DNA of 64,000 nt, taken from assembly GCA_964486845.1 (NCBI GenBank), contig CAZAQY010000007.1, positions 1,688 through 65,687 on the forward strand, read 5' to 3'. A program made the position numbers and the translations under genes. This stretch comes from an uncultured Pirellulaceae bacterium. Lineage in GTDB: Bacteria; Planctomycetota; Planctomycetia; Pirellulales; Pirellulaceae. The number at the start of each line of letters is the position of its first letter. Position 1 is the stretch's first letter. The notes below the pieces were generated by a model. That model did not search any database. It was not told the origin of the DNA and saw nothing but the letters and a program-made list of their open reading frames with translations. Below, one piece after another: positions 2,795-37,596 of the stretch.

Positions 2795-2829
2795 CGCAAT
2801 TCTGCCAATTCCCCGAAACTTCGCAAACC

Positions 2830-2845: not shown

Positions 2846-2849
2846 GGGG

Positions 2850-6933: not shown

Positions 6934-7041
6934 CGACGGACCATAATCCGGCCGGCACGCGCCGGCTTGGCACCGGACGGCAAGCCTGACGAGGCAGCGA
7001 CGGGAGAGACGATTTCCATCGCTCGCGCGTCGAGCTTGTTT

Positions 7042-8331: not shown

Positions 8332-8341
8332 GATCGCCCCC

Positions 8342-8899: not shown

Positions 8900-9027
8900 G
8901 ATCGACCTGTGCTCTCCGCCGAAGGCAGGTAGCAGGAGTGTGAACTTGGCGGCATCACCGAAGTGCGGTGCAGACACGTATCGAGTCGCGATCGGAAGTC
9001 GTTTCCGCCCGGACTCGCTTCCAGCCG

Positions 9028-9417: not shown

Positions 9418-9478
9418 ACCAAATCGCTCCCTATAGGAATGGATACTGTACGTCTTCCTGCGGTCAGTCGGAGCGTCC

Positions 9479-9985: not shown

Positions 9986-10106
9986 GGGACCGCCCGTGAG
10001 TCTGGCCGGGATGCCCTGATTGTGTCCGGAAACGACAAAGGGCGTAAGTATACTTGCCGCAGCCAGCATAGACAACCGTGAATCGAGCTTGGTAGGATAA
10101 CTCGTC

Positions 10107-10972: not shown

Positions 10973-13900
10973 CTACTGCGAGATTTCCGCGAGAATATCA
11001 TCCCACGGCGTGGCGTCCGCGAACGAGTCACCAATGTCCGCGGCGATCGAATCGAGCACGTCTTCCAGCCCGAAGCGATCGATGCGGATCGTGTCCCGCT
11101 CGGCGTCCCTGCGCAGGCGAGGTTCCGGCACCGCCGGCGGGAACACGGCGGTGCTTTCGCCATCGTCCAATCGCGCCGCCTCACCGGGTTGATCGAGTCT
11201 CGGCCCGGTCGCCAGGCTTGCACCCCAGGCCGGGGATGCCGCGGGTCTCTCCGGAACGAGGATCGGCTCACTCACGAAGGAACCTGCCGTGATCGCCGCC
11301 AAACCGGCCCATCCCTCGCCTTCGCCGCCAGCCGGTGAATTCAGCCGGTTGATCTCGTTGACCACGAGCAGGACGTCTCCCGGCTCGGCCGAACCGTTGC
11401 CGTTCACGTCGTAGAACGGAGCGCCCACCGGCCGGGGCACCGGCAACGCCGGATTGCCCGGATGGCTGTTGATGTAGTTGATCAACAGCAGGGCGTCGAT
11501 CGGCGACACGTATCCGTCGTTGTTCACGTCCCAGCGAAGGATGGGATTCTGCCAGTCCGAGGCCGGCTTGTCGACGATGCTGATGACGACCGTGACGATC
11601 TGCTGGCTGACCGCTCCATGTTCGTCCAGGGCCTGGTAGGAAAACGTGTCCAACGTGGAAATTCCGCCGTTGTGGCGATACGTGAAGGTGCCGTTGGCAT
11701 TCAGGGTGAAGCCGCCGCTGGCCGCGTACTGCGGTCCGGTCACCAGCCGCGCCCGCAACGCATCGCCTTCCGCATCGGTGTCATTGACCAGCACGCTGTC
11801 ATCGCCCGGTCCGTTGACCGTGCCGTTGACGTCGTTGGCGTTCAACACGCTGCCGCGCACGACCGTGTAGCCGTTGGGATCGATGTTGGCGATCGGCGCG
11901 TCGTTCACGCCCTGAATCGTCACCGTCACGGTAGCGACCGACGAGCCCACGCCGTCGCTGACCGTGTAAGTGAACTTCTCGGTCACCGTCTGACCGGCCT
12001 TCAACGCATCGAACTGCCCGTCGGGACTATAGATGATCTGGTTGTTGGCGGTGTTGGGCGGATTGATGACCACGCTGCCGAGCAAACCGGTATCGTCGAC
12101 AGCCACGACGATCTTCGGTCCAAAATCGTCCGTGTCGTTGAACAGCACATCAATCGTGACCGACTCGTCTTCGGTCGTCGTCACCGAATCGTCAGAGGCC
12201 ACCGGCGGATCGCTGGCCCCGAAAACGGTCACCGTGACGGCCGCCGTCGCCGTGCCGCCGTGACCGTCGCTGATGGTGTAGGTGAAGTAGTCCTTGGCTT
12301 CCTGGCCGATTCTCAGTGAATTGAAGGCCCCGTTGGGATCATACGTGACCGTGCTGTCCGCGTTGATGGAAACCCTGCCCTTCGTGCCGGCCAAGCCGAC
12401 CGAAGTAACTTGCAGCGCATCGCCGTCGATGTCCCGGTCGTTGATCAGCACATTGATCACCACCGTGCCGTTGCGGGGCACCCGGGCGCCCGTATCGGCG
12501 ACCGCCGTAGGAGCGTCGTTCAGGCCGTCGATGGTCACCGTCACCGTGCCCACGGCGGTGTAGCCGTCCTCGTCCTTGACGACGTACCGGAACGTGTCCG
12601 TGGCGGTCTGGCCCACGCCCAGCGACTCGAACTTGCCGTTGGGATGGTACGTGACCGTGTTGTTAAAGGTCCCCAGGTTGTTGACGCTCACCAGTCCCTT
12701 GGTGCCCACCGCCTGGACGCTCGTCACGGTGAGCCGGGTCCGTTCCGGATCGCTGTCGTTGGCCAGCACCGGGATCACCACGGGGCTGGCTTCGTTCGTC
12801 CGCGCGATCGGGTTCTGGGCCGTCCAGACGTCCGTCACGGCCTGTGGAGGATCGTTCAGGCCCTCGATGGTGACTGTCACGGTGCCCGTGCTGACGCCGC
12901 CGTGGCCATCCGAGACCTGATAGGTGAAGGTGTCGGTGGTCCTTTCCCCGATGTTCAAGTAGGCAAAGTTGCCGGCCGGATCATACTCCGCATAAGCTTG
13001 CCCGTTGGCGTCCGTCTTGATCGTCACGGTTCCGACGGTTCCTGTGTCGGCGGGGGCCAGGCTGACGAGTTCCAGTTCGTGCCTTTCCGGATCGGTATCG
13101 TTCGCCAAGACGTAGATGTTGGCCCTGGTGTCCTGATTGGTCGTGGTCGTGTCGTTGACCGCCGCGGGCGGGTCGTTACGGCCCTGCACGGTCACCGTGA
13201 CGGTTGCTCGGTTGGACAGGACGTTGCCATCGGTAGCCCGGTACGTGAAGGTATCCGTGCGGAATTGGCCGACGTCGAGGGCCTGCAACGCGGTGGCCGG
13301 GCTCGCGTCGTAGTAGAACGTGCCGTTCGGGTTCATGCTGACCCTGGCGCCCAAGACGGTCGCCATCTGGTAACTGGCCACCGTCAGCACGGCACCGAGC
13401 GTGGAGGGCACGTCATTGGCCAGGACGGAAGACAGCAGCGTCGTGCCCTTTTCGTCTTCATCGGACGAATAGGTATCGTTGACGGCTACCGGTGGTACTC
13501 CCGCCTGAATCTCCACGACGTGATCTTCGACTTCGCCGTCGGGCGCCAGTCCGGTGGGCCTCAGGCCCCCCAGGCTGCTGATACGAAAACGGCCGATCGT
13601 CCAGCCTTCCACCAGTTCCGCCGTTGGCACCACCTCGAACGCGTTAGGCCCGGCCCGCAACTGCTGGCTGGCGAAAATCTGCTCGCCGGGATCGTCAAAA
13701 TCACCGTCAATGTTGAAGTCGATCCAGGCGTCCAGCAGCCCTTCGGCCGACGCGGTGATGACCACCTCCGTGACGGAATTCAGGTTGAACTTGCCGATCT
13801 CCACACCGTCCTCATCATCGGTGCTCAATTCCAGTTGGCCGTTCCCCTGCGCGGTGGCCGCGATTCCGAGCCGGGCGCCCAGCACGGCGGATTGGACGGC

Positions 13901-16900
13901 CCGGACGAATCCTTCCTGGGTCGTGCTTCCGTCGAACACCAAGGGGATGTTGCCCCGTGTCACGCCATTGTCGAGCCTGCGGTCTTCGAACTCGAAGACG
14001 TACGTCATCGTGCGCGTCACCTGGCCATTGCTGGTGTACGTCACGTCGATGGTGAACGTGTCGCGGTCGAGAATGGGGTTTGCCTCGCCTGCCTCCGTCA
14101 AGCCATAGCCGGGCCGGATGGACATGGCGTCGCCGCCGAGGTGTACGGCACCGCCGCCGAGGTTACGGGGTTGCAGTCCCAGCGACAACCTCTCGCTCTC
14201 CGCCGCCACGGCCGACGCCGTCTTTTCCCCGATTTGATCGAAGCTGTCGCTGCCGGAGAACTGGATGACCGCAGCGTCAGGGACTCCATCCAGGTCCGCG
14301 TCCCACCATACGCCGTTGCTATCGAACTCAAACGTCGCGGTTTGATTGTTGTTGGTCACCGTGAAGATCGCCCCGTCTTGGACGCCGCAAACCAGCAGCG
14401 TCTGAGGCTGCGGGAACTGCATCACCGAGGGCGACAGCAACTGCACGTTCACGTTCGGGGGTATCGCCACGCGGAAGTCGGTGCGGTCGAGGGCGTCCTG
14501 ATTGTCGTCCCTGTTCGCCGTCCCTTCCTGGGAGACCTGGCCGTCGCGTTCGGCATCCACGCGCCGGCCGAGCGTAAGCGGGTTGTCGGTGATCACGTGT
14601 ACCGCGCCGTTCAGCCCCAACTCGGTCGGGTAGTGCCCGCCCTCTGTCTGCGGCGAATCGCCGAAGTCCATGTTCACGTTGCCGATGATGATGGTCATCT
14701 GCGTGTCGCCCGACAGCAGGTTCGCCTTGAGCGGATTGTCCGCGCGGTCCTTGATGCCCAGCCGCCGCTCGTTGCTGACGAACACGGGGTTCAACTCGGT
14801 GACCTGCAGCGCCTCCTGAATCAGCACCACGTCGCCGCCGGCAGGCAGCGGCGTGACGGCCAACGAACTGCTTTGGATTGCCCGGATGAGCGATACGGCG
14901 ACCTGCGTGCCGTCGTACAGGAACAGCTCGGGCAGCAGGAACGCCAACTTGCCGCCTCCTTGGTCCGTCATCGAGATTTCGACCCCGGCGTTGAGTGCGG
15001 CGGCGACGACGGCCTCGACAAAACCTTCCTGCGACGTGCGGTCGTCGAACAGCACCGGTATGTGGCCGTCGACCACGCCGTTCTTCAGCTGACAGTTCTC
15101 AAACTCGAACGTATACGACACGATCTGGCCGGCGCGGGTCGGCACGTCGATGGTCAACAGGTCGCCGTCCATGATCGGATTGGCCTGCCCCGCCACGCTC
15201 AAGGCGGACCCTGAGGCCACCAGCGCATCGCCGCCCAGGTGGACCCTTCCGCTGCCGAGGCTGCGAGGCCAGAGCCCCAACGCACGGGTCTCGCTCTCCT
15301 GGGCCACAACTTGCACCGTCGCGGCGGCGATCTCGTCCACGGTGTCGGCGGCGCCAAACGCGATGGGGACCGCGTCGATCGCGTAAACGCCGTCCGAGTC
15401 GTACTCGAACTTCGCGCTGCGTCCGTCGTTGGTCACGGTAAACGTCGCTCCGTCGCTCAGTTTCAGCTTGTCGCTGAGGGTCAGGACCAGTGTCAGCGGC
15501 TGCTGGAATTGCACCACGGTCGGCGCAGGCTGTGGGGACGAAATGGGCTGGCCGTACGCGTCCAGCAGTCTCATGCTGCCCGATACGTTCACCAAGTACC
15601 GCTCGGAATTCGAGTACTTGGTGTACATCCTCACCGGCACCGGAACCGCGGCCGGAGTTCCGGCGGTGCCGAGCACGCTCAGGCCGGGCGTCCGCGCCGG
15701 CACCGTCGGACTGGGCGGCGGCACGGTGGCCGACAAGGCGTGTCGCGAGGTGCCGTCCGTCGGCTCGCCCAGCAAGACGACGCCCAAGCCGGCGTTTACG
15801 GGTTTCAATCCGGACAGGGGCGCCGTCCGAATGGCGGCCACGATCTGATCGGCAAGATGGTCCGGGGACCGCGGATCCAGGCCGGGCCGTCCCACGGTTT
15901 TCAGGGACGTTCGGGAGACGTCGGCGGTGTACTTCGACGTCTCGGCCACGGGCTCGCCCAGCAACACGATGTCTCCACCCGGACTCACCGGATCGAGCCC
16001 CTGCAAGGTGGTCGAGCGGATGGCCGCGACAATGGCCGCCGCGATCTCGGGGGTAGTACTCGCCGGGGTGGTGCTCGTGCCGCTACTGTACGGCACCGCC
16101 TTGTTGCCCAAGGCCGTGCCGGGACTGCGGGCCGTGTCGTCGAATTCGAACGTCACCTGCCGCGTGCCATCGGAAAGCTTGAACGTCTGACCGTCGGCCA
16201 GGTAGGGCAATCCGCTGGCGTCGGCGGCCAGACGCGGACTCCCGTCGGCATTGGTGGGGATCCGCAGACCCCAACGCGAACTGTGAAAAGCGACCACGAT
16301 GTTCGGCGCCGTGGTCAGACCGGCGCCGACGCGGGCATCCAAGTCGTCCAACTCAAACGTCACGTTCCGTGTGCCGTCGCCGATCGTGAACATGTCCCGG
16401 TCCTGGACCCACGGCATGCCGCTGCCGTCATCGACCAAACGCAGCACGCCTGCACGGGTAGGAATCCGCAAGCCGAATGCCGAACGTACGCCTGGCTGGG
16501 CAGGCACGCCCGGTACCACGCTGTCCGCCAGCGTCAGACTGCTGTTCGCTACGTTGACGATGTGCACGAAGGCTGTGCCGCCCAAGTGTACGCGGCCGTC
16601 GGCCAGCGGAACGGGGGCCAAGCCGAGTTGAGCCAGTTCAATCTGCGTGGCGATCTTCTCCGCGATCTCCACATTGGTGTCCGACGCGCTGAAGTCGATC
16701 ACCCAGTTGTCCGGATTGCCGTCGCCATCGAGATCCACCCACTGCTTGTTGTCATCGAATTCGAAGGTCACGATCTTCGATCCGTCGTCGACCACGAAAA
16801 ACTGTCCATCCAGGATACCTTGGGATTGTCCGCTGCGTCTCAGCGTGGGGGCGCGCGAGACGTCGACGGTGTGCGCGCTGGTGCTCCCCAAGTGGACGAC

Positions 16901-31900: not shown

Positions 31901-34900
31901 GGTGGCGTTGCTGGCCAGGACCAGGCCTCCAAAAGTGTGGAAGTCGGGCACATAGACCGTGTCCAATAGAACGTGGACGATGTCGGTGTCATCCCACACG
32001 CTTTGCGTGGTCAGCGTTTGGCCGCGAACCACCATGCCGTTGATCTCGTTGTTGTCCAGCCGATTGGCGAGAATCAGCGGCCCCTGGTTGTCGCGATAAC
32101 CTCCCACACGGTCGATCGCTCCGGTCGTGCGCCCCGTGTCCCGTTTCAGGACGTAATTCAGGGCGTTGACGTTGATGCTGATCGCCGGAACGGCGACGTT
32201 GGGATTGCTGGGGGTGTTGGTGCGGTCTGCATCGGGGTTGTTGCGGAAGATGTTGTTGTAGATCACCGGCTGTGCCTGCCGCACGAAGACCACGCCCGGT
32301 TCGTTGAAGCCTCGGCCGAAGCGGTCGAGTTCGCCCTGGCCGCCCTGGCCGGGCCCGTTGAACTCGAAAATCGAATTGGCGACCCGAGCCTCGGCGTGGT
32401 CGTGGACCTCCACCACGTTGAAGCCCGTGAAAGTGCCCTCGACGCGCGTCACGCCGCCGCCGTAGGCGAACACGGCGTGATCGATGCTCAGGTTCGACAA
32501 GTGCCCGACGTAGATGCCGCCCCAATTGCCCGCCGCCGGATCGTTCGACGTGCCGGTGATGATGGCGCCGTCATTTCCCGTATCGAAGTTGCCGCCGGCG
32601 CCGTAGCGATCATCGGAAATCGAGGTGAAGATCATCTCGCGTCCGTCACTGCCCTCGGCGATCATCTGCGCGCCCATCTCCAACTCGAACCGCGCGCCGT
32701 CCAGTTTCACGACGACCGAAGGATCAATCATCAACCGGGCGTCCGGCCGCCCGTGCAAAACAACGTTGTCCAGAACCGCGTTTTGAGGGATCTCCCGGTA
32801 CCGCGGATCATCGGCCGGACCGTAACTCCCGTCGTCGTCGAACTGCGTCAGGGGCGAGTATCCGCCCGTGCTCAGCGTGTCATCCAATTCCGCGATCAGC
32901 TGGTACTCGCTGTAACCGTTGCCGTCGCCCAAGTCCACGCTGCGATAGATGCGCCGTCCGACGAACCCTTGCGCCGGGGCGGCCAGCGGCAGGTTGTCGA
33001 GCGTGACAATTCCGTCACCGGGCGTTCCAAATTCCGTGGGATTGCCGGTGATGGCGATCGCCGCCGTCGCGTCGGAGGCCCGCGAGTCTTGGCCGAGCGA
33101 ATCCACATAGGTAATCCGATATCGGTACGTGCCGGGCAGCAGGCTTCCTGACGGATTGCTGGACAGAACCACCCCCGTGACGGGCGGCAGGTCGAGGAAT
33201 TGGCCACGCGTCTTTCCCACGTCCTTGTAGGTCGCGTCCAGACGATTTAACTCGGCCACCAAGGCATAGGGCCCTTGGTTCTCGCTGCGGTACAGGCGGC
33301 GGGCGACATACCCGGAGGGCGCCGGCGGAAGTTGTGTGAACTGCACCGCGCGTCCCGTCCCCGTGAGCGTCACCGCCATGTTGACCGACGCCGGGCTTTC
33401 ATAACCGAACCGATCGACGTACACGAGCCGGTACGAGTACTCGACAGGCGTGAGTCCCGGGTTGAGACTGCCCCCGGTTGCCGGCGTCATCACCACCAGG
33501 GCCACCGCGGGCGCGGTGACACGCTCCAGCGCTCCGCCGGGTTGGGAAGCGATCGCCAGGTTTTCGCTCATGATGTGGACGATGTCCGCGTCGTCCCAGC
33601 GCCCGGAGACGGTCAGCTTCTGAGCGGTGCTGCCGGCCTGGGTGCCTATCCGCACGAACAGGCCGTTCACCGAATTGTCGACGAGTTGGTTGTGATGGAT
33701 CTCCGGCCCGATCCGCTGGTAGTCGGAGGTAAACGGGATCCGCTGGTGACGCGGCGAGTGGAAATTGGTTTCCTCAAAACTGTCCGGACTGGCAGAGATC
33801 GCCGCGTCCGCGCTGCGGTAGATCCGGTTGTACGTCAAGGTCGGCCGGGCGTCCGTCAAGTGAATCGGATTGATCGTGCGGGGCACCGAATTGATCAGCA
33901 CGGTGCCGCCACCGTACCGAATATCGGCGTAGTTCATGTAGTTCAGGAAGATGCCCTCTTCCTCGTACAGGAAGGCGCCCTGGGAGCGGTCGACGTCGTT
34001 GCGGAACTCGATCCCGCCCCAGTCGCCCGCCGCCGGCGAAGTAACGTACGGATTCGTGTCCAGACCCACGTCCTGATCGTTGTACGACGTGAAGTACACG
34101 CTGCCCGCCGCCTTCGCGCCGCTGCCGCTCTGCACCACGGCGTCCCCGAGGTCCAAGCCTCCGTTCGCGTTGCTGTCCGTCAGCAGGATGGGAGTGCCCA
34201 GCACCTGGAACGCTCCGCCGCTGCGGTCGATGCCCACCGCGCTGCTGCCGACGCCGATGCGAGCACGCCGCATCTGGAAGATCGCCCCCGCGTCCACCAT
34301 TACGGTCACGCCGCGGGGGACCTCCAACGTCGGACCGTCCGGCAAAGGCGCGCCCAGACTGTTGAAGCCGATCTGATAGGCTTTATTGTCGGCCAGCGTG
34401 GCCCAATTCGCGTCGCGGCCCGGGTTGCCCACAACGCGGACGATGTCCCCCGGACCGGCCTTGCTGAGCGCCGTGGCCAGATTGTTGTACGGGGCGCTCA
34501 GCGTGCCCGATCCCGAACCGGTCGCCGGCGCGTACGACTTGTCTACGAAAATCGTCTCGGCCGCGCTGGTCGGCGTCCCACTCAGCAGCGCCGGCGCCGT
34601 CTTGAACCAGAAGTTGTAGACCCCGCCGGGAACGCCGTCCCCGTCGCCGTCCAGGAACGTGGGACCGCTCGGATCGTTCGGATTGTCGATGTCGGCGATC
34701 GCTTCCTTGACGTCCGGACGATAAGTCAGCCGCAGTTCGTACTCGCCCTGCGTCGTGCCGCCGAACCCGGAATCCTCGATGGCCGGGTCGTACTCCTCGT
34801 TGCCGCTGGCACTCACGCCGACGTAGTACGTGCCGGGAGCGAGGTCCAATTCCAGGTACGAGTCGCGGCCAAAGTAGTTGTCGTTCCGCGCCAGCAGTTC

Positions 34901-37489
34901 CCGCGTGCCGTCGGCGTTCTCGCGCCACAGCGTGATCGCGGTGTCCAGCAGACTCGATTGCAGCCGACGTTCCGCCATCGTCTCGATCGCCAAGTGGCCG
35001 AGCGCCTCCGGCTTGCTCGGATTCACGGGCAACTCGAAGCGGAACATGTCGATGTCTTTGCTCTCAGGGAAATACAGGTACCGTAGATGTACCAGGTCCT
35101 GATCGCTCATGATCGTGGGCTCGATCGTGTTGTCAAAATCCAAATCCGCATCGCTGGCGCGGAGGGAACTCCCCGGAATATCCCCAATCGCACGCCCGGG
35201 CAGTTCCGGAGCAACGGCCCAGCCGGCCGCGATGGTGGACGCATCTTCGGGGGTCTGCTGAATGTAGTCCTCCGTGCCCAGTCCGAGATACGACGTGATC
35301 TCGAGCAAAGCCGTCCGGAACCAGCTTCCGTTGAAGCGATCGTTCAGATTGACGTCCAGGGGCCTGAGCAACGGCTGGTCGGGATTGAACGCCAGCGAAT
35401 CCCCCGACGCAATGATCAAACCGTCCCGTTCCGTCTCGACAAATTCCACCCCAATCAGGTCGCTGAGAATTTGGAAGACCTCGCGTGCCCGGCGCTTCTG
35501 CGTTTCGGTAATGACGTTGAACGCCGTTTGCCGATTCCCCCGCGCGTCGATGAGAAAGCCGATGTCCTGACGGAAGTTGTACTCCAGCCGCGTGATGCCG
35601 GAATCCCGGTCGGCCCCCTCGTCGGGGACGTGCTGAACCAGAGCGATGTCCCGATGCCCGGGTTCGTCGTTGCCCCCGGGCAACACGAGGTTGTAGACCT
35701 GGGGCTCGATCCGGCCGCGAACGATCAGGTCCCGCAGGTCCTGCTGGGTCGCCGACACTTCCAGCGTCCCCAAATCTGTGGCTGTATCATAGCTCGACCC
35801 CAGCCCCGTCAAGGTCACCGTGGAGTACTTGACCGGCGGGCTTGTTTCATCCGTGATCGGCGTCGTAATGAGTGTCCCTGCGTCCGCCGGAGCGACACGC
35901 GCCTGCACAAGTTTCCCGGCGCTGAAATGCTGGTTGATCGCGCCGGCCAACTGCTGCGCCGTGGTGGGGTGCTTCAGGTCCACGGTGATCACGTTTTCCA
36001 GCACGCTTACGCTGGGCGAGCTGCCGGCGCCGTGCTCGCGCTCGAACATGGCGTCCGAAAGCTGGTAGACGTCGATCCGAACCGCCTTGCCCCAGCTCTC
36101 TGACAAGCCGAGCATCTCAATGGGCACGCCCAGGTAGTTGCCCGTGCCCTTGGTCTCGGGTGTGACCGTGACGGGAGCCAGCGGGAGCGACTCGTTGGTG
36201 CCGATCCGTAAACGAAAGGTGCCGGCGGCGCCTTGCGGGTTCACCAGCGTCGCCAGATCCGACGCGAACGTCAGCAGCGCCATGTCCTTGTCCGCGCTGT
36301 ACTCCACGCCGATCGGCTTGAACGTTATGTCATCCGTGTTTTCCAGTGTGTCGTTGGTGTAGATCAGCTTGTAGAAGTCCCGGTTCAGCGCGCTGGCCTG
36401 GTGCAAATCGTCATTGTTGAAATAGACGGCGATCTTGTTCCGTTCCTGCACCAGGCTGCCATTGGCCAACTTCACGATGGGTTGCGGAACCACGGCGACA
36501 ATCTGAGGCGCCAAGTCCAATTCGAATACCAACGTTGAGTTCTTGCCGTCCAGATAGCGTTCGCCGTTAACGTTCTTCAGCGGCGTGGCGCCCGTGCCAA
36601 AGACGTCGATCCGGTAGACGTCGTCCGGCGGCTGGCCCGCGAAGCGAAAGACAACCTCATTCCGTGCCGGCTCGGCGTTCACGCCGATGTAACCGGGCTG
36701 GACGACGATGTCGTTGGCTCCCGTCAGGACCAGGGAGCTATTGGCCGGGGCCGTGGCCGCAATATTCACGGAACCGGAACCACGCGCAATCCGCGCCGTG
36801 ATCAAGTTGGTGGCCTCGATGCTGTTTCGCAGGGCCTCCACCAAATTCTGAGCTGTCGTTTGGTTGTTCTTGTTGATGTTCAGACTGACGTTGATGGTGC
36901 GTCCAATGACACTGATGCCCGGCAGACCGGGTCCGCCGAAGTCGCTCTTGGTGATCGACAAAGTGATCCCATTCTGATCCTGTCCGAGTCGAACGGCAGA
37001 AAACTCGATCGACACCCCGTTGATGCCCGTGCCAAAATCGCTGGAAACTGTAGCCGGCGCAAAGACTCCGTCCAGATTGCTGCGCGTGATCTGAATGCCT
37101 CCGGGCGCCGTACTGCTGCCCAACGACGCCGGGTCGATCTGCTGAAGCTGATCAAACCGGAATGTCAGGTCGGACGGCGCCACGTGACGGATGTCGCCCG
37201 TCTGCAGCAAGCCACCGTCGTTCGGCTGAATTCCGATCAGCTTGGCGCCAGCCAACAGCTGACGTTCCTCAAGCCGCTCGATCTGCATGTGCCGATTCGG
37301 TTTGCGATGATTGGACGAGAGCAATTCCTGCCGGTTCTTTCGTTTCCTGGACAGCAACCTTCGCGATCGACGGATGGCCATGAACCAACCCCTTGTGTGA
37401 CCCGCTTGTTGAGGATCAAGTGTCTTTGTTTTCGAGCGCCACTGACCGACGTACCGCCAGCGCAGTATGGCGGCCAATAACAGCAGCAT
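10973..37489 (-). CDS. Giant secreted mosaic repeat protein (8,838 aa), adhesin/surface-matrix type
   Basis: Single 26,517-nt ORF with no stops. It contains recognisable domains throughout (sub-features below). Antisense ORFs are fragmentary and Arg/Gly/Ala-rich. The start is ambiguous, with ATG candidates at 37489, 37381 (MAIRRSRR) and 37288 (MQIERLEERQLLAG). Confidence 0.95.
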   Translation of the reverse strand: MLLLLAAILRWRYVGQWRSKTKTLDPQQAGHTRGWFMAIRRSRRLLSRKRKNRQELLSSNHRKPNRHMQIERLEERQLLAGAKLIGIQPNDGGLLQTGDIRHVAPSDLTFRFDQLQQIDPASLGSSTAPGGIQITRSNLDGVFAPATVSSDFGTGINGVSIEFSAVRLGQDQNGITLSITKSDFGGPGLPGISVIGRTINVSLNINKNNQTTAQNLVEALRNSIEATNLITARIARGSGSVNIAATAPANSSLVLTGANDIVVQPGYIGVNAEPARNEVVFRFAGQPPDDVYRIDVFGTGATPLKNVNGERYLDGKNSTLVFELDLAPQIVAVVPQPIVKLANGSLVQERNKIAVYFNNDDLHQASALNRDFYKLIYTNDTLENTDDITFKPIGVEYSADKDMALLTFASDLATLVNPQGAAGTFRLRIGTNESLPLAPVTVTPETKGTGNYLGVPIEMLGLSESWGKAVRIDVYQLSDAMFEREHGAGSSPSVSVLENVITVDLKHPTTAQQLAGAINQHFSAGKLVQARVAPADAGTLITTPITDETSPPVKYSTVTLTGLGSSYDTATDLGTLEVSATQQDLRDLIVRGRIEPQVYNLVLPGGNDEPGHRDIALVQHVPDEGADRDSGITRLEYNFRQDIGFLIDARGNRQTAFNVITETQKRRAREVFQILSDLIGVEFVETERDGLIIASGDSLAFNPDQPLLRPLDVNLNDRFNGSWFRTALLEITSYLGLGTEDYIQQTPEDASTIAAGWAVAPELPGRAIGDIPGSSLRASDADLDFDNTIEPTIMSDQDLVHLRYLYFPESKDIDMFRFELPVNPSKPEALGHLAIETMAERRLQSSLLDTAITLWRENADGTRELLARNDNYFGRDSYLELDLAPGTYYVGVSASGNEEYDPAIEDSGFGGTTQGEYELRLTYRPDVKEAIADIDNPNDPSGPTFLDGDGDGVPGGVYNFWFKTAPALLSGTPTSAAETIFVDKSYAPATGSGSGTLSAPYNNLATALSKAGPGDIVRVVGNPGRDANWATLADNKAYQIGFNSLGAPLPDGPTLEVPRGVTVMVDAGAIFQMRRARIGVGSSAVGIDRSGGAFQVLGTPILLTDSNANGGLDLGDAVVQSGSGAKAAGSVYFTSYNDQDVGLDTNPYVTSPAAGDWGGIEFRNDVDRSQGAFLYEEEGIFLNYMNYADIRYGGGTVLINSVPRTINPIHLTDARPTLTYNRIYRSADAAISASPDSFEETNFHSPRHQRIPFTSDYQRIGPEIHHNQLVDNSVNGLFVRIGTQAGSTAQKLTVSGRWDDADIVHIMSENLAIASQPGGALERVTAPAVALVVMTPATGGSLNPGLTPVEYSYRLVYVDRFGYESPASVNMAVTLTGTGRAVQFTQLPPAPSGYVARRLYRSENQGPYALVAELNRLDATYKDVGKTRGQFLDLPPVTGVVLSSNPSGSLLPGTYRYRITYVDSLGQDSRASDATAAIAITGNPTEFGTPGDGIVTLDNLPLAAPAQGFVGRRIYRSVDLGDGNGYSEYQLIAELDDTLSTGGYSPLTQFDDDGSYGPADDPRYREIPQNAVLDNVVLHGRPDARLMIDPSVVVKLDGARFELEMGAQMIAEGSDGREMIFTSISDDRYGAGGNFDTGNDGAIITGTSNDPAAGNWGGIYVGHLSNLSIDHAVFAYGGGVTRVEGTFTGFNVVEVHDHAEARVANSIFEFNGPGQGGQGELDRFGRGFNEPGVVFVRQAQPVIYNNIFRNNPDADRTNTPSNPNVAVPAISINVNALNYVLKRDTGRTTGAIDRVGGYRDNQGPLILANRLDNNEINGMVVRGQTLTTQSVWDDTDIVHVLLDTVYVPDFHTFGGLVLASNATESLVVKMLDNNQNDTKKIGFVATGIPHEIDDRIGGIIQILGQPGSPVVLTSLRDDRHSAGVRLDGSPQNDTNADGDFRDPTNYPNAQAPQPGDWNSVLLDRFSHDRNVETLYEQEARDVNSPGPNGSPDGAELLGILAPSEYAADENRRLGFTIKGFLADQRDLDVYSVKAIPGTEVWIDIDRTTHALDAVIELLDSDGKVLARSISSPSELSNPNNFLEPQDRTADNLTERELADPSLLWGAARLMLKTPQIPQQDLYTTNPRDPGLRVVLPGVPNPEDPERPLTYHIRVLSNGPTFLADEDAELTFHDNGAQPDTITVTNGNFRNAGFARGQGLVISGTLHNDGVYTITGLADDQTLTLAAADRLQPETAPAGARLTAPLTAGAYQLQVRLREVDEIGGSTVRYATIAYATNGIEVRGQPSHSPLSGESGESASANDSTATAQGVGNLLNSDRGTISVAGNLTGTDVDFYEFNINYLDPDAIGLFSTIFDVDYANGLGDRPDVSIHVYDSAGRLILTARDGNIAEDRPATPGSADIDDLSRGTVGASDPFLGVVNLPTGTYQVAISSDRRMPSDLDQFVRAIATNPDIRLEPVETIRRIAEDHIEVGNTSTADPPQVSLLFGDQAEVAYHLGDVTLYLYRAPNPLVTNLSELVTIDPFTGALETNVGSLGGGAVTVETGDIAMHPNGWLYSYRQALVDAQSGNFLHVNPGDATFAGQILDDGIVTYARDPVSGITYRTDDGIQFNALTFYKAAAGSQLDTVGLAVGERGLADSPQALPGVEIANNILYQFDGRQSSPTFGQAHSGSGIDRTGSATDPLYLGAGTQIRERGEILTSPRIEAVYASGGGITRVSDDDRLVPPPGKANALDIRDGQTFTVVDGANQTTFEFDTGPEVIQTIDVAGANSIRDGNFFQLDNTVFQIDTGSTIVIDLWPATSDSVTISDGAFAWTFLFDRTLPLPADSAANRYNWLWAGVDRLAAASNLALEINSVSAVAGNRFNVTAFASGNRVTLVGDVASVVDLVTTTPMTQRVRVEGTGGYAPILQGVDFSQITDGDDFSLTYLNTRYEFEFDKGYTLETPVRYAIQVPPIGGRGVIDGDTFTISNLVTGQSRTFEMDLNGITTPGNHPIAYLATDRSDQLATKILVEVQKYAAPSLLNLAPTVQTGGVVHLGTINRTRVVVPTDSRLTVLGDDDEGIVDGDTFTISDGRGRTRVFEMTTDTTLTDPVNNIPVFFQQSYTHDEIANAIANAIDQQALFAYPVRNLGDGIIHLGGDDGVPVGSFRHSVTSGTPHITPRGRPGLDNPAAVPPAILIDLTDTRNTFDAAQVVTQMSAAITGTLSRINPLFPIFTTQVVNDRLVVNADSPLVFTPGSSRILDVTRHGLGFALISNIEEAYDRWYNGGVALAATYNMPTDYTLNVAYPLGPNDARGRNMSDHIIATKIASVVGAQVEYRIGGAGGFIDRLTFPDAVTADFSGMNRLGAPEIWRQVTTSVHGVARGNIRIPLRADDWPVDHTVDVNFDGTPDSTQIGLANKIANAINQTLNPLGIQATARGKYVRLNRGSITNSSSLIVKGEGPGGEVRGLATLNGVLYAVSDEGGLYRVDDPLDQSGEIGDVSTAYIRSSRDDLLGIRFSGLAAGPANVENGRYADMLFATDAAGTLYAFDTSGEAQPVFVNGATSVSTGLHPSEVRGLAFSTLDENLFHRTGTLPSLNYADAMDERILPNVVEGQTILVDKRQLDPGHEGSDVGTSSLHFGRGNVNGAPRTYDFPGGAYGTIVSNEFSLKGYSAADRPVLYFSYYLDTENDSSNPNDPLVPNSAMMRDAFRVYVADNNGDWQLLVTNNSYTGAAVPPATVGNELLDLGKSHVPTTPDDKVQYFDVQEAFDVRDWRQVRVPLDQYAGRTNLRLRIDFSTAGDFNVGDVNTTGFELRAVAGLFIDDGETVQIGQRTLEFDSGLTIVAPTGAALARMIGEEMTITDALDGSATLRFVDNLFTDSEIIVTDGSQLRDGDVFYVSDGVSTQAFEYDSGYILHVPAAGGAAIADQETFLVDLDGDGENLPLAFEFDKDGELIDIDDEPGPDATPINIADNLTILTPANGSLISDGEMMSLSNGITTYVFEFDKDGVRLSPRNLLINVANNRTILLPAAGGGVGGVRDGNTFRIDPDGFGRGVAAEVFEFDNNGVAGSGSNVISFDHFTTQDQLADRVAAAIRARAGALKLNAKNAGGGVVVLDKSTILHAVDTSAAVNVSNSFQPPTQGELAERIIAALDAADGQTDGWVKFAPTDPVDLHLRLHEVADAEVQGGVIVLDGTRPEHSLGTASGSLGVNQTRTPRDAEDIASFIAEEINAQIKANFPGSQLRAAVLEGGLVAILDAAGGVDHTVDVAAAPSLTLSGVPGVADGNLAVPFFPTDTLDEIVHGGPPVVVESQPPLEAGARPGLLQAISGSGLNVVASQRAFPDENVVVLEGTAGLAATFAAGISPFQPRNVVPIFVSDKQTANDVAERIALAIRQAVARGDLAPMVAPHLNGNLGYENPSIPPGAVRTNLVNVSGVKGITLSSGGASPIVIRGVYGLNDPNALDRALVTINTDMDRVGVADSLDSVLESWLHNPTIITENGLHYHDEDSFVLEDGVNAAATYEFDSGYVVAVPIGGGVVADGGIEDGDYFTLTDSSGLISATFEFDKDNSLIHLASEAVAISITDLDNALSVARAVVAAVQSHPLRSSLNMTPAVLTGNRVQIGGSRGSTLAISPGSTLTQSVRYVLEVPPSGGSAFRDGAAFSLTDGAATARFEFDKVRGLLPTPVGEVSWPVSISDSDDREAVIGAVMTAVANHPLSSQLGLETRRLSGGRVAVFGGPGVTLSSQAYTFLTEPDGQPGVSPAVTLQLPETLSMQLPDPLMIHVPDGGIVDGETFILGDGSLARTFEFEDIAFANGVGFDQAIGILNVPNIAIAFSNADGPEAIGRAILQAINQSSLFVSPTMLGGAGNIDLGGGANSSLTLSSPAAMFRTGRLSLQTPADDPLGTPNRKTSGQKILENNTATTERFTIDTPTTTFVFEFDSDGVLGPTPSSPGKPLQHIRISFQRTDSRDQLADRILAVLQNVPGLGMAPVKSTGPVRVHLGAIAYDSNPATQVTLDTSRTHLSQTGQTDVLADGYQFVITNGWTSLRDPSLPPLQLRVPAAGGGSGGVTDGEWFQISVCQGDDVTHCQAAGTPGYVTRYVFELDSDGVISTSPSATETEEIKPIGISFLPEDSRGRVANRIRDAVDSVVAGMTPVTRSNGVVDLVVDAGVNSANYTLTFPVTITFEFDLDGQVATGAAAVSVFSGSTPQQIAGEIVHQINRTSLGLSAQYLGDGKIHVGGTATHRLDTASAPGLTQSGQGGPIPDGQAFYATEGAETVRFEYDKDGVVTPGSIPIQLWSQKIQALPGNQYVEGQQLSFFDPAGGGWVTVTFDNVRTTTIAGPNPIAFDPVAPTPAAVMAQRIFNALNHVFADPPDSTSRLTATLGNFNTVIVRAGAGDFDMLPRDALATATVDHLSPGVSGLFIYPAVLSNGLIDLGGTDENDALTLTTSLEMDPASAPLQLRVPALGGGAGGVIDQEIFTITNSQTGTDYVFEFDNDGAVRAGNFRVTFQTTSLTARRGDQYTEGEQLSFYDAGKLVAFTFDNVRTPQIPGPNPILFDPGDLTATPRQNPTPAREMAQRIAAAIRGASWLTVTVNPKQPERLVVGGADQNSIAIQVAQTVRNFVPGLQPVNLGDGVVTLGGDPSVFAVQFEPTVLVATGERGGQTPRIPVRFSPSFDFTAHDVASAMVASINSTLNLEIQASSGARGTANQRRVELNHASGFPWEIQFQSNVGAALRLETPTDIVKQDEDLIRIIGHEVVDAGPLGFEDVLPDAANAPNPTAYLPGDAMGGFESATRGQRNRFEGVYLDDFIIGFAERGERTNNADPDTSSTFVDRPDGTGRIEGAYQLEIRRGSDLTNETVPVSVDTNDRLAAGVTLVVQRGLDIANRQTFRISDGVRHVDFEYLDTTIPNNPPAPGVIGIPFTPADPDDLIARRIRDAVNGPDVQAVLDVTASLSDGTLTGRGSPMYSTSNRVNLFGPVTLQVHATDVPETNDTFAGATKTQIFGINSPAYLGRAMIGDNANFPLRPGFDVDLFEVALSAGETLRVDVDAHEIGSPLDAILRIFDRDGNELAISDNDAAPGEFLRLDPFLEFTPVVAGTYYVGVSGKDNRSYDPRIEGSGSEGNTGFYQIEITFGASTGSDFVLYDRQGDSNLFRDQGQILIHGNTITNSARYGIDVAPGARDGQDGDIPHAGPVRNTPKLNTGNLVPGVVIANNILAYNGDPATGQGGGIRFAGEVNPPGGQVGPVPFGRIVNNTIYGGIAPNATAAPVEIVFMIATSPSLAQDIVELRRQLPTFDAQMRAANVDAQYGLVTFPGANSNSAPKQIQDLVPFSTFVAAGSPFNSFPVAGATEYGSQAVLEALNAFDPTTTFSFNRPGAQVITIMVTDEDDDSLTSDFTAALTALRSASARFFGITLDPDAPYAGNTAQTYDQFARQTGGALFDINAFRQSPTTFFNVFSQTVASTLAGGLGAGISIEDNASPTVLNNIAAGLAAGISVDASSEAAGTVVGGTLYQGNQTDLNAVQITEDFALHLAAADPLFRDVTSGHFYLARLSPAIDSSIGSLLDRFDLQQVRNLLGIADSPILAPATDLTGQQRVDDPEVETPAGFGEFVFVDRGAVDRSDFVGPTATAVSPRDNDADGLDKNPAPTALEFGTSAAYSSFRIRLVDGVPPADAQHGSGLEDATVVSSNVILKRDGVPLVDGIDYAFSYNSTSDTIVLTPLSGIWEPNRVYTVELNNTDHFRVVAEPGTELLDGASFEILDKKGQVATFEIDSGYTLSVPQTLTLTVPSAGGSLGGIADGASFTVRRSIPGIPTQTKVFEFDSNGVWADNNRDGTPDNILVKFTGTDTPDQIADAMVAALKSANIGLSPKSVGGGVVHLGSTSAHTVDVSRAPTLRRSGQSQGILDGQFFVVDDGSKIVTFEFDDNKQWVDLDGDGNPDNWVIDFSASDTNVEIAEKIATQIELAQLGLAPVPLADGRVHLGGTAFVHIVNVANSSLTLADSVVPGVPAQPGVRSAFGLRIPTRAGVLRLVDDGSGMPWVQDRDMFTIGDGTRNVTFELDDLDARVGAGLTTAPNIVVAFHSSRWGLRIPTNADGSPRLAADASGLPYLADGQTFKLSDGTRQVTFEFDDTARSPGTALGNKAVPYSSGTSTTPASTTPEIAAAIVAAIRSTTLQGLDPVSPGGDIVLLGEPVAETSKYTADVSRTSLKTVGRPGLDPRSPDHLADQIVAAIRTAPLSGLKPVNAGLGVVLLGEPTDGTSRHALSATVPPPSPTVPARTPGLSVLGTAGTPAAVPVPVRMYTKYSNSERYLVNVSGSMRLLDAYGQPISSPQPAPTVVQFQQPLTLVLTLSDKLKLSDGATFTVTNDGRSAKFEYDSDGVYAIDAVPIAFGAADTVDEIAAATVQVVAQESETRALGLWPRSLGSGRVHLGGDALVASGSALSVAGQANPIMDGDLLTIDVPTRAGQIVSYTFEFENCQLKNGVVDGHIPVLFDDRTSQEGFVEAVVAAALNAGVEISMTDQGGGKLAFLLPELFLYDGTQVAVSLIRAIQSSSLAVTPLPAGGDVVLIQEALQVTELNPVFVSNERRLGIKDRADNPLKANLLSGDTQMTIIIGNVNMDFGDSPQTEGGHYPTELGLNGAVHVITDNPLTLGRRVDAERDGQVSQEGTANRDDNQDALDRTDFRVAIPPNVNVQLLSPSVMQFPQPQTLLVCGVQDGAIFTVTNNNQTATFEFDSNGVWWDADLDGVPDAAVIQFSGSDSFDQIGEKTASAVAAESERLSLGLQPRNLGGGAVHLGGDAMSIRPGYGLTEAGEANPILDRDTFTIDVTYTSNGQVTRTMTYVFEFEDRRLDNGVTRGNIPLVFDGSTTQEGFVRAVQSAVLGARLGIAATAQGNGQLELSTDDEDGVEIGKFNLNSVTEVVITASAEGLLDAWIDFNIDGDFDDPGEQIFASQQLRAGPNAFEVVPTAELVEGWTIGRFRISSLGGLRPTGLAPDGEVEDHVVEIQAGVPPVAVNDTYSSDEDEKGTTLLSSVLANDVPSTLGAVLTVASYQMATVLGARVSMNPNGTFYYDASPATALQALDVGQFRTDTFTYRATDGNVLSNRATVTVTVQGRNDPPAAVNDTTTTNQDTRANIYVLANDTDPERHELELVSLAPADTGTVGTVTIKTDANGQAYAEYDPAGNFAYLNIGERTTDTFTYQVSDGHGGVSTGTVTVTIEGLNDPPQAVTDVWTAQNPIARTNEASPVVIPVLANDSDPERTRLTVTSVQAVGTKGLVSVNNLGTFNNTVTYHPNGKFESLGVGQTATDTFRYVVKDEDGYTAVGTVTVTIDGLNDAPTAVADTGARVPRNGTVVINVLINDRDIDGDALQVTSVGLAGTKGRVSINADSTVTYDPNGAFNSLRIGQEAKDYFTYTISDGHGGTATAAVTVTVFGASDPPVASDDSVTTTEDESVTIDVLFNDTDDFGPKIVVAVDDTGLLGSVVINPPNTANNQIIYSPDGQFDALKAGQTVTEKFTYTVSDGVGSSVATVTVTIQGVNDAPIANIDPNGYTVVRGSVLNANDVNGTVNGPGDDSVLVNDTDAEGDALRARLVTGPQYAASGGFTLNANGTFTYRHNGGISTLDTFSYQALDEHGAVSQQIVTVVISIVDKPASDWQNPILRWDVNNDGYVSPIDALLLINYINSHPGNPALPVPRPVGAPFYDVNGNGSAEPGDVLLVVNEINRLNSPAGGEGEGWAGLAAITAGSFVSEPILVPERPAASPAWGASLATGPRLDQPGEAARLDDGESTAVFPPAVPEPRLRRDAERDTIRIDRFGLEDVLDSIAADIGDSFADATPWDDILAEISQ
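11345..11536 (-). other. Dockerin-like paired EF-hand Ca-binding module (giant protein aa ~8652-8715)
   Basis: WDVNNDGYVSPIDALLLINYIN and YDVNGNGSAEPGDVLLVVNEIN, followed by a ~120-aa acidic tail running to the stop. Confidence 0.75.
11570..13489 (-). repeat. Six cadherin-like/VCBS-type ~105-aa repeats (giant protein aa ~8001-8640)
   Basis: Repeat boundaries are TVTVQGRNDPPAAVND, TVTIEGLNDPPQAVTD, TVTIDGLNDAPTAVAD, VTVFGASDPPVASDD and TVTIQGVNDAPIANID. Internal motifs are VLANDTDPE and DTFTYxVSDGHGG. Confidence 0.8.
13508..14671 (-). other. Giant protein aa 7607-7994: DFGD/GEVED-type domain split by a ~225-aa insert of two FEFD modules
   Basis: MDFGDSPQTEGGHYPTELGLNGAVH...VDAERDGQ...RDDNQ (14501-14671), then the insert (13820-14500), then DDEDGVEIG...AWIDFNIDGDFDDPGEQIF...GRFRISS...PDGEVEDHVVEI (13508-13819). 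Confidence 0.55.
14690..17287 (-). repeat. FEFD-module array, part 3 (giant protein aa ~6735-7600)
   Basis: Examples are LLDGASFEILDKKGQVATFEIDSG, IADGASFTV..TKVFEFDSNG, ILDGQFFVVDDGSKIVTFEFDDN, VQDRDMFTIGDGTRNVTFELDD, LADGQTFKLSDGTRQVTFEFDD and LSDGATFTVTNDGRSAKFEYDSDG. Confidence 0.7.
18155..18724 (-). other. Giant protein aa 6256-6445: von Willebrand factor A domain embedded between beta-helix (PbH1-like) repeats
   Basis: VEIVFMIATSPSLAQDI...YGLVTFPG...VITIMVTDEDDDS is the vWA strand pattern. The MIDAS DxSxS position reads ATSPS. Flanks are NSARYGIDV / NNILAYNG..GGGIRF / NNTIYGG and ISIEDNASPTVLNNIAAG. Confidence 0.6.
20390..26092 (-). repeat. FEFD-module array, part 2 (giant protein aa ~3800-5700)
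   Basis: At least 16 modules, for example LRDGDVFYVSDGVSTQAFEYDSG, ISDGEMMSLSNGITTYVFEFDKDG, IEDGDYFTLTDSSGLISATFEFDKD, IVDGETFILGDGSLARTFEFED and IPDGQAFYATEGAETVRFEYDKDG. Confidence 0.7.
28070..29293 (-). repeat. FEFD-module array, part 1 (giant protein aa ~2733-3140)
   Basis: Examples are IRDGQTFTVVDGANQTTFEFDTG, ITDGDDFSLTYLNTRYEFEFDKG, VIDGDTFTISNLVTGQSRTFEMD and IVDGDTFTISDGRGRTRVFEMT, each followed by ..IANAIANAI...LGDGIIHLGG-type segments. Confidence 0.7.
31880..34372 (-). repeat. Giant protein aa ~1040-1870: two paralogous ~280-aa beta-helix-like segments flanking two ~100-aa beta-sandwich repeats
   Basis: Paired motifs are PAAGDWGGIEFRND / PAAGNWGGIYVGH, NQLVDNSVNGLFVR / NRLDNNEINGMVVR and GRWDDADIVHIM / SVWDDTDIVHVL. 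Between them lie YSYRLVYVDRFGYESPAS...RRLYRS and YRYRITYVDSLGQDSRAS...RRIYRS. Confidence 0.55.
34721..35062 (-). other. Giant protein aa ~810-923: PPC (pre-peptidase C-terminal)-like beta-sandwich 1
   Basis: DIDMFRFELP...ITLWRENADG...GTYYVGVSASGNEEYDP...GEYELRLTY. Similar units occur at about 31022-31432, 30194-30517 and 19124-19462. Confidence 0.6.
35210..35692 (-). other. Giant protein aa ~600-760: degenerate metzincin (M10-like) domain
   Basis: TETQKRRAREVFQILSDLIGVEFVETERDGLIIASGD resembles the serralysin/M10 pre-motif region. TALLEITSYLGLGT (35276-35305) aligns with T..HEIGHALGL.H, but both His zinc ligands are replaced by Leu and Ser. Confidence 0.4.
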
Positions 37490-37568: not shown

Positions 37569-37596
37569 ATTATAATCTCCGACTATTCCAGTTCAA
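37569..37596 (-). promoter_or_regulatory. Candidate sigma70-like promoter of the giant gene
   Basis: On the minus strand the sequence reads TTGAAC (37596-37591), a 16-nt spacer, then TATAAT (37574-37569). It sits inside a conspicuously AT-rich ~170-bp island about 80 nt upstream of ATG 37489. Confidence 0.3.

Follow-up and report, generated by a model that had tools for sequence, protein, structure and literature searches.

A giant Pirellulaceae protein built around an uncatalogued repeat, and the colinear family of Planctomycetota giants to which it belongs

The 64,000-nt stretch of DNA analysed here (hereafter the window; contig CAZAQY010000007.1, assembly GCA_964486845.1) comes from an uncultured Pirellulaceae bacterium and carries, on its minus strand, a gene for a giant protein, referred to below as the giant. 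Our results indicate that this is a single, intact gene, that its product belongs to a large family of Planctomycetota giants, and that a repeat named here FEFD is the dominant building block of the protein. An open reading frame (ORF) of 8,838 codons runs uninterrupted from an ATG to its only stop, the terminal one (10973..37489). At the G+C content of the window (63%), about 2.8% of random codons would be stops, and the calculated probability of 8,838 open codons arising by chance is about e^-250, which excludes a random origin. Long plus-strand ORFs within the gene, e.g. 23198..28345, are read as the usual antisense shadows of a G+C-rich gene.

An earlier sequence-only reading of this DNA had described a single 26.5-kb ORF. 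The ORF itself is confirmed, but its start was placed 36 codons too far upstream. Met37 (37381) is the most likely start, because the N-termini of the family, the gene callers and a Shine-Dalgarno-like site agree on it. Family N-termini read 'MAIRRSR...', continue with a basic stretch of about 30 residues and 'LExLExRQLLA-GPQLIGIQPNDG', and align with Met37 of the longer ORF; gene callers report 8,802 aa on other assemblies; and a Shine-Dalgarno-like AAGGGG lies 8 nt 5′ of Met37, with none ahead of Met1. The first 36 codons (37382-37489, minus strand, MLLLLAAILRW...) differ from those of the closest relative, L005, by two non-synonymous and no synonymous changes, and are probably a non-coding 5′ leader. 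The features of the gene are collected in Table 1, and residue numbers follow the 8,838-aa ORF throughout.

Pfam and NCBIfam, the domain libraries scanned, recognise only the ends of the protein and a few islands, leaving about 6,000 residues unannotated. The islands are a sub-threshold Planc_extracel motif, PPC/DVUA0089-type domains, a weak Beta_helix match, a borderline vWA domain, a GEVED domain, six cadherin-like repeats and a dockerin. The 8,802-aa protein is extremely acidic (net charge about -507) and cysteine-poor; a sequence scan found no transmembrane-like segment in it, and neither a membrane anchor nor a sortase-type signal was found. It begins with a leader holding 14 basic and 4 acidic residues in its first 45 aa. 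The motif LExLExRxLLA-GPQLIGIQPNDG stands 37 residues past Met37 in the giant and at residues 5-67 in 44 Met-starting relatives. The N-terminal region behind the leader gave no match in a profile search against PDB sequences.

The domain that follows is a degenerate metzincin. The stretch LEITSYLGLGT (aa 728-738; 35276-35308) sits in the alignment column where 22 of 64 relatives have the zinc motif HExxHxxGxxH, typically as HEIGHLLGLGH, and one relative, P0049, scores above the Pfam cutoff for Peptidase_M10. In the giant, all three His ligands are lost, with L, S and T in their place, and a 28-aa insertion follows the motif. Judged from this alignment, the domain is homologous to that of the relatives but catalytically dead. 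Its ratio of non-synonymous to synonymous substitution rates (dN/dS) against L005 is 0.085, which denotes strong constraint. Each of the four PPC domains has a Pfam or NCBIfam match; profile-profile comparison gives probabilities of 94-99.5% among PPC2, PPC3 and PPC4 and for PPC1 with PPC4, and only about 64% for PPC1 with PPC2 or PPC3.

Between PPC1 and PPC2, an AlphaFold model of aa 955-1995 (predicted local distance difference test, pLDDT, 81.7; predicted template modelling score, pTM, 0.74) is all-beta, with two long-strand sandwiches lying between two coils of short strands. Profile-profile comparison relates coil A to coil B at 99.7% and the first sandwich to the second at 100%. The best PDB fold match of this model is the tail-muzzle protein of the phage crAss001 (E 8.7e-4), and Pfam crAss_MUZ matches weakly (E 0.17) in the sandwich segment (32855-33517, minus strand, aa 1325-1545); the Vibrio matrix protein RbmA is among the weak fold matches. 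Precomputed annotation places Pfam PF28492.1 and PF26766.1 on relatives of aa 955-1995 (P0173, P0188, P0192, P0199, P0201, P0207, P0213, P0232 and P0233). The region after PPC3 (aa 2440-2720) found no match in the PDB-sequence profile search, and the one at aa 3440-3840 matched only a 29-residue PQQ-propeller-like repeat; from its sequence pattern, the rest of the latter region is read as a jelly-roll-like domain.

In the C-terminal half, beta-helix-like region C has no relationship to regions A and B detectable by profile-profile comparison. It hosts an inserted vWA domain, matched at aa 6258-6424 with E 6.7e-5 and a borderline score of 23.6 bits against a cutoff of 23.8. The host domain is conserved, and the insertion is common to only 1 of 118 relatives. 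The DxSxS of the vWA metal ion-dependent adhesion site (MIDAS) reads ATSPS, an Asp-to-Ala change assigned by eye, and the later Thr and Asp positions are apparently kept. Further on, the halves of a GEVED-type domain (DFGDSP...YPT...GAVH...DAERDG and DEDGV...GEVED) are contiguous in 22 of 69 relatives and otherwise separated by one to many repeat units; on this comparison, the domain is split by two FEFD units in the giant. Its second half carries the match to PF20009 (E 4.4e-12, 47.1 bits against a cutoff of 24.4, model positions 3-77 of 78). The dockerin (Dockerin_1, E 1.4e-13) has both canonical loops, DVNNDGYVSPID at aa 8654 and DVNGNGSAEPGD at aa 8694. The tail after it ends in ...LEDVLDSIAADIGDSF...DDILAEISQ, and many relatives end in a similar acidic pattern, [DE]x[LIV]F..[DE], which could be a sorting or docking signal.

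Most of the modules named in the sequence-only reading are borne out by these results: the degenerate metzincin, the four PPC domains, the pair of beta-sandwiches (visible in the model), the vWA embedded in a beta-helix (the third such domain here), the split GEVED, and the six cadherin-like repeats and dockerin, the last two with library matches. Its remark that no catalytic motif looks intact likewise stands, given the lost metzincin histidines and the altered MIDAS. For beta-helices A and B, the all-beta coil of short strands appears in the model, but the fold itself is weakly supported by Foldseek (E 0.02-0.5); so is the Ig-like domain, by a Big_5 match with E 0.04.

The FEFD unit is about 100 aa long and occurs in tandem, with the consensus P..GG...DG.TF.I.dG....FEFD.dG....N..I.F...T.d.IA..I..AI....LGL.P...G.G.V.LGG. 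The giant holds 17 complete and 14 partial units, some of which carry a DxDxDGxxD Ca-binding loop immediately after FEFD. The repeat is modular: its beta-hairpin half (DG.TF...FEFD) and its helix half (T.d.IA..I..AI...LGL.P..G.G.V.LGG) are each found alone, with lone half-units at 24110-25162, 15740-15868 and 14813-14908 (minus strand) and weak helix-half-like matches in the N-terminal region at aa 204-258 and 500-535. FEFD regions have no Pfam or NCBIfam match, nor does the precomputed annotation from a later Pfam release list anything on fragments that consist of FEFD only; the PDB-sequence profile search returned no relative of the unit. An AlphaFold model of two units is confident (pLDDT 90.7, pTM 0.84), shows several strands and one 14-residue helix per unit, and suggests rigid packing from unit to unit. 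Compared with the PDB by Foldseek, the fold reaches at best E 0.07 and a template modelling (TM) score of at most 0.27, with faint echoes of the outer domains of flagellin and FliD. Among predicted viral structures, remote analogues occur in phage baseplate-J-like and tail proteins (E 1e-5 to 1e-3, TM score at most 0.38, 13-15% identity). FEFD is, as modelled, a confident predicted fold without a catalogued relative, and a new element here. An exhaustive profile search of 1.84 billion representative proteins retrieved 2,540 at E<=1e-3 and 356 at E<=1e-30, and many of the proteins bearing it are 5,000-8,000 aa long with 4-27 units.

Table 1. Features of the giant gene in window coordinates, listed in the direction of transcription
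Feature	Residues (aa)	Window position	Strand	Remarks
Sigma-70-like promoter match, TTGAAC-16-TATAAT		37569..37596	minus	~190 nt upstream of Met37; consensus match only
Most likely coding sequence, Met37 to stop		10973..37381	minus	26,409 nt, 8,802 aa
N-terminal leader	37-85	37235..37381	minus	basic, then LERLEERQLLA 'Planctomycete extracellular' motif
Family-conserved N-terminal region	86-560	35810..37234	minus	
Degenerate metzincin (M10-like)	~600-800	35090..35692	minus	
PPC1 (PPC/DVUA0089-type)	~810-930	34700..35062	minus	
Beta-helix-like region A	~975-1320	33530..34567	minus	
Two homologous beta-sandwich domains	1325-1545	32855..33517	minus	
Beta-helix-like region B	~1575-1965	31595..32767	minus	homologous to region A
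PPC2 and PPC3	~2000-2445	30155..31492	minus	
Family-conserved region	2450-2700	29390..30142	minus	
FEFD array 1, three units	2704-3146	28052..29380	minus	lineage-specific slot
Family-conserved region	3440-3830	26000..27172	minus	begins with weak PQQ/tachylectin-like propeller repeat
FEFD array 2 and half-units	3846-4460	24110..25954	minus	
FEFD array 3	4486-5687	20429..24034	minus	largest, ~8 unit-equivalents, lineage-specific
Family-conserved region, then single FEFD unit	5690-5860, 5863-5945	19655..20422	minus	
PPC4	~6010-6110	19160..19462	minus	above Pfam gathering score
Beta-helix-like region C	6125-6600	17690..19117	minus	
vWA inserted in region C	~6255-6440	18170..18727	minus	
Ig-like domain	6600-6730	17300..17692	minus	Big_5 weak, E 0.04; conserved in 126/154 relatives
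FEFD array 4	6745-7559	14813..17257	minus	slot filled in every relative analysed
GEVED-type domain, N-terminal half (DFGDSP...YPT...GAVH)	~7600-7680	14450..14692	minus	
Two FEFD units within GEVED-type domain	7680-7901	13787..14452	minus	
GEVED-type domain, C-terminal half	7890-7995	13505..13822	minus	matches whole Pfam GEVED PF20009
Six cadherin-like repeats (Big_9/tandem-95/VCBS type)	8000-8640	11570..13492	minus	
Type-I dockerin	8654-8714	11348..11530	minus	Ca-binding loops DVNNDGYVSPID and DVNGNGSAEPGD
Acidic C-terminal tail	8715-8838	10976..11347	minus	similar acidic tails recur in relatives

A gene of this size and repetitiveness might be an artefact of assembly or annotation, in which repeats were collapsed or joined into a chimera, or several genes were fused. 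Every assembly that carries this exact gene appears to be of short reads, and several contigs end within it (at about aa 696, 1595, 1822, 1840 and 2538), both of which speak for such an artefact. Yet all these break points lie outside the repeat arrays, and the gene has no long, near-identical DNA repeats for an assembly to collapse: no direct repeat exceeds 71 nt in length or 73% in identity, and the units at the protein level are 25-50% identical. The same locus was recovered in a Logan assembly, in several ENA assemblies and in one JGI metagenome. Two contigs from different assemblers, ENA k141_244111 and Logan SRR12326496_1981, contain the complete gene, each called at 8,802 aa; in k141_244111 the distance from start to stop is 26,409 nt, equal to that in the window. 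Both contigs differ from the window by 0-4 mismatches over the 5′ 9.3 kb, and the ENA contig has 0 mismatches over the 3′ 4.8 kb. Selection points the same way. L005, on a metagenome-assembled genome (MAG) of an uncultured Pirellulaceae bacterium, is a 93.9%-identical copy whose frame is open over the 4,542 aa compared, with small in-frame indels only. For this pair, dN/dS amounts to 0.147 overall and lies at 0.08-0.32 in each segment of the first 4,530 codons, among them the arrays and the dead protease domain. As the complete domain order is also seen again in dozens of independent proteins, an artefact is highly improbable. The gene is intact and under purifying selection, a real single gene of an uncultured Pirellulaceae bacterium.

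The wider family was defined by aligning 20 named regions of the giant (BLAST) to the 154 best FEFD proteins. Regions of the conserved core match 48-126 of these 154 representatives and single regions 1-126, in a constant order: N-terminal region, metzincin-like domain, PPC, beta-helix A, sandwiches, beta-helix B, PPC2/3, PPC4, beta-helix C, Ig, GEVED and dockerin. This colinear architecture recurs in dozens of Planctomycetota proteins of 4,800-7,300 aa labelled 'hypothetical' or 'DVUA0089 family'. By this comparison, the giant belongs to a large, colinearly conserved, uncharacterised family of Planctomycetota giants. The sequence-only reading could not name the architecture; read as a claim of uniqueness, that does not hold, since the domain order is conserved in dozens of representative proteins. 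The novelty lies in the uncatalogued FEFD repeat and in the architecture of the family that surrounds this repeat; within the family, the giant is an unusually long variant.

The closest full-length relative, P0009 (NCBI MCO6455986.1, 'DVUA0089 family protein [Pirellulaceae bacterium]', 6,755 aa), is 41-60% identical to the giant, depending on the region. It has the same domain order from the MAIRR leader to the dockerin, with FEFD arrays in the same slots. The giant is about 2,000 aa longer, owing to bigger FEFD arrays in two slots, and has the vWA insertion; P0009 retains HEIGHLLGLGH, whereas the metzincin of the giant is dead. In every relative analysed, FEFD units (2.3-4.7) occupy the slot that separates the Ig-like domain from GEVED, while the number within GEVED is 0-3.6. 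Only the giant and P0009 possess the two large arrays of the N-terminal part, the 'unit 1' arrays, with 2.6 and 8.1 unit-equivalents in the giant and 1.8 and 3.9 in P0009. Judged by these counts, the giant is the longest member seen because of a lineage-specific expansion of FEFD.

These comparisons also bear on the proposal, made in the sequence-only reading, that the protein consists of two similar super-units. The beta-helix and Ig-like domains of unit 2 match their unit-1 counterparts at no more than 5% in profile-profile comparison, by which a segmental duplication yielding two super-units was rejected. As these unit-2 domains show no detectable relationship to those of unit 1 and the large unit-1 arrays are confined to the giant and P0009, the two super-units are not an ancestral, duplicated plan. 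The same reading had suggested comparing orthologues for synteny and for copy number of the arrays; that comparison finds synteny with L005 only, and FEFD copy number varying in fixed slots.

In species-level genomes, relatives are 35-95% identical to the giant over aa 37-1200. Seven related loci have the frame open to the end of the locus, over at least 4,200 aa, and one of these lies on a complete 7.08-Mb Aureliella chromosome. Fragments of the family are named 'hypothetical', 'peptidase', 'NF038122 family metalloprotease', 'vWA domain-containing' or 'cell surface protein', and come from Pirellulaceae, Aureliella, Rubripirellula, Pirellula, Fuerstiella, Thermoguttaceae and one Hydrogenedentota MAG. 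Tandem paralogues were seen at L010:3-8552, on the complete Aureliella chromosome, and at L011:3-9071, in a Pirellulaceae MAG; at both, the family member is immediately preceded by an ORF that encodes the C-terminal portion of a second member (FEFD, GEVED, cadherin and dockerin). Two MAGs labelled Candidatus Kuenenia sp. (L007 and L008) have family members 36-38% identical to the giant. A MAG labelled 'Planctomycetota bacterium' (L014) has an ORF 84% identical to the one upstream in L007, and the Kuenenia-labelled members may reflect mis-binning or mislabelling, rather than presence in anammox bacteria.

Giant genes of planctomycetes have been predicted to encode surface, adhesion or Ca-binding proteins, and have not been dissected so far (PMC5177795; PMC12673574); a 2025 review gives their roles in general terms only (PMC12673574). 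For the present protein, the structural, adhesive or Ca-binding role proposed in the sequence-only reading is a reasonable one to infer. We consider it probable that the giant is a Ca-binding extracellular surface fibre of the fibrillar-adhesin kind. GEVED has been described as a stalk-type partner domain of fibrillar adhesins, and Planc_extracel has been treated as a signal (PMC10952558). An extracellular fibre is proposed because of the Planc_extracel motif and the conserved leader, the lack of a transmembrane segment, the strong negative charge, and the Big_9/tandem-95, GEVED and dockerin matches; because the two-unit FEFD model points to rigid packing; because FEFD copy number varies within fixed slots, as in stalk repeats; and because Ca-loop motifs occur in FEFD units and the dockerin loops are canonical. 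The head is taken to be non-enzymatic because all three metzincin histidines are lost while the domain remains under constraint.

Export of such a fibre would be directed by the basic leader with its LExRxLLA 'Planctomycete extracellular' motif. Outside the cell, the FEFD units (17 complete, 14 partial) and the six cadherin-like repeats would form a long shaft that provides reach, with DxDxDGxxD Ca-binding loops on some of the FEFD units. The dead metzincin, the four PPC domains, the three beta-helix-like domains and the vWA insertion, which make up the conserved head and the interspersed modules, would in this copy offer surfaces for binding rather than act as enzymes. Finally, the Ca-dependent C-terminal dockerin, with the acidic tail behind it, would hold the fibre by binding a partner, either on the cell envelope or in the matrix. 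Inferred in this model are export, the formation and geometry of a fibre, its dependence on calcium, adhesion, the ligand and the end that is anchored.

Several observations weigh against a surface fibre. The Planc_extracel match (aa 66-81) scores 15.9 bits, below its cutoff of 25.5, and the leader has no classical hydrophobic signal-peptide core. Only two FEFD units were modelled, and the geometry of a rod is an extrapolation from them. The genes of the window include neither a cohesin nor a secretion system nor any other conserved partner, and synteny is retained only with the 94% relative L005 and lost beyond it. Foldseek support for a right-handed beta-helix is weak, with AlgG and GH110 at E 0.02 and PL6 at E 0.5; the beta-helix regions could nonetheless be catalytic towards glycans, and, with an intact metzincin in a third of the relatives, the family as a whole may be enzymatic.

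The last two points lead to a different function, that of a surface-tethered machine for degrading polymers, in which the dockerin would plug into a cohesin scaffold as in cellulosomes, the beta-helices and, in paralogues, the metzincin would cut polysaccharide or protein substrates, and FEFD units would be spacers only. The intact Ca loops of the dockerin fit this model, as do the enzymes AlgG, GH110 and PL6 at the top of the beta-helix matches, the zinc motif kept in 22 of 64 relatives together with the Peptidase_M10 score of P0049, and the NCBI labels 'peptidase' and 'NF038122 family metalloprotease' on some fragments. However, the metzincin of the giant has none of its three zinc ligands, the matches to beta-helix enzymes are weak (E 0.02-0.5), Pfam and NCBIfam found no glycoside hydrolase or lyase family across the protein, and no cohesin gene was found within the window. 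Such a machine is thus unlikely for the giant. It is slightly less likely still that the protein is a released scaffold of a matrix or biofilm, or a structural protein of the envelope, shed to cross-link cells or particles through Ca2+ and its binding modules. The absence of both a membrane anchor and a sortase-type signal, the extreme acidity with several Ca-binding motifs, and the presence of RbmA among the weak fold matches would agree with release, but the dockerin, like the C-terminal tail conserved in the family, speaks for specific docking.

The tethered surface fibre can be set beside several known systems. Fibrillar adhesins, e.g. the CshA-type GEVED-containing proteins (PMC10952558), consist of an adhesive head, a repeat stalk and an anchor. 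The giant shares with them tandem stalk-type repeats, GEVED and cadherin-like Ca-binding repeats; its export signal is a motif-level match, vWA and PPC are candidate binding modules, and the adhesive domain and anchor are putative. In contrast to these adhesins, its main stalk repeat is uncatalogued, its GEVED-type domain is split by repeats, it ends in a dockerin instead of LPXTG or another known anchor, and no CshA NR2-type domain was detected in it. The dockerin-type giants of Omnitrophota (bioRxiv 10.1101/2023.11.21.568195), compared here by description, are likewise giant, repeat-rich and predicted to act in extracellular attachment, and belong to the Planctomycetes-Verrucomicrobia-Chlamydiae (PVC) superphylum; in both cases, the repeat folds were found through structure prediction only. 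The Omnitrophota proteins combine dockerin with CBM35-like ladders, thrombospondin-3, a C-terminal transmembrane segment and SecA-like elements, whereas the giant has one dockerin and no transmembrane segment; the beta-sheet tubules with external helices reported for them also differ in description from what is seen here.

Giants of the RTX/Bap/LapA/SiiE type, secreted by type I systems in Gram-negative bacteria, resemble the present protein in size, acidity, Ca-binding Ig- or cadherin-like repeats and an embedded vWA, and a weak BapA/Bap/LapF match from NCBIfam falls within the cadherin block. Unlike them, the giant has no RTX repeats and no type I secretion system (T1SS) genes nearby, and its leader motif is planctomycete-specific. 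A T1SS-exported adhesin of the RTX/Bap/LapA type was rejected, with no HemolysinCabind match in the protein and no T1SS genes in the window, and so was a toxin or polymorphic effector, with no toxin, Rhs or transmembrane element detected. The N-terminal part recalls M10 metzincins (matrixin- or serralysin-like) with a C-terminal PPC, in having a homologous domain with a PPC next to it; a PPC after the protease domain occurs in many secreted bacterial proteases. It differs from them in the replacement of the zinc ligands by L, S and T and in the 28-aa insertion past the motif, and is thus a pseudo-protease domain within a giant protein.

One widely conserved architecture is now defined for a large family of planctomycete giants. 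The family splits naturally into members with intact and with dead metzincins, and its arrays expand within fixed slots. Its definition would improve the annotation of proteins at present labelled 'hypothetical', 'peptidase', 'DVUA0089 family' or 'vWA domain-containing', and would offer cell biologists a set of candidates for the genes behind attachment and surface fibres in planctomycetes. As a more speculative extension, which we hold to be doubtful, FEFD may be a new fold class that stacks into a rigid, Ca-stabilised rod, and the family of 5,000-8,800 aa a long-unidentified structural component of Pirellulaceae surface fibres (e.g. those of the holdfast or of crateriform structures); the paralogues whose metzincin is intact would then be 'proteases on a rope', and the dead copies, such as the giant, pure binders.

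The neighbours of the giant gene are of a housekeeping kind: ParB, DUF1015, S-adenosylhomocysteine hydrolase, a FabF/acyl carrier protein (ACP)/FabA-ApeI-like cluster, dipeptidyl peptidase IV, an ABC transporter and a DegT aminotransferase. We also rejected a conserved partner gene, as distant loci have no upstream gene in common with the window. Abutting the stop of the giant on the plus strand (10107-10951) is a pair of small ORFs, one with PEP-utilisers_N only (158 aa) and one with PEP-utilizers_C only (122 aa, as called in L023), apparently what is left of a PEP-utilising enzyme that was split or truncated. A second fragment, at 40458-41117 (minus strand), covers profile positions 216-283 of 472 of Amidohydro_3 and is called as 128 aa elsewhere; the homologous stretch in L005 is broken into three pieces, and the fragment is probably a decaying pseudogene. 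Downstream of the giant, at 7042-10258 (minus strand), the cluster consists of FabA/ApeI-like, ACP, FabA-like and ketoacyl-synthase genes, and a second FabA/ApeI-like gene lies upstream, at 45724-46830 (plus strand); the ApeI-like labels may indicate a pathway of the aryl-polyene type or one for specialised lipids.

Two further genes lie 5-10 kb upstream of the giant gene, and no link to it was found for either: a separate 671-aa right-handed beta-helix protein (42665-44680, plus strand) and a TadG-like Flp-pilus protein with a vWA domain (46823-48109, minus strand). The sole Rfam match in the window is a tRNA at 604-678 (minus strand). Outside the window, the matching ENA contig carries a gene for a phage-type integrase just past ParB and two small ORFs.

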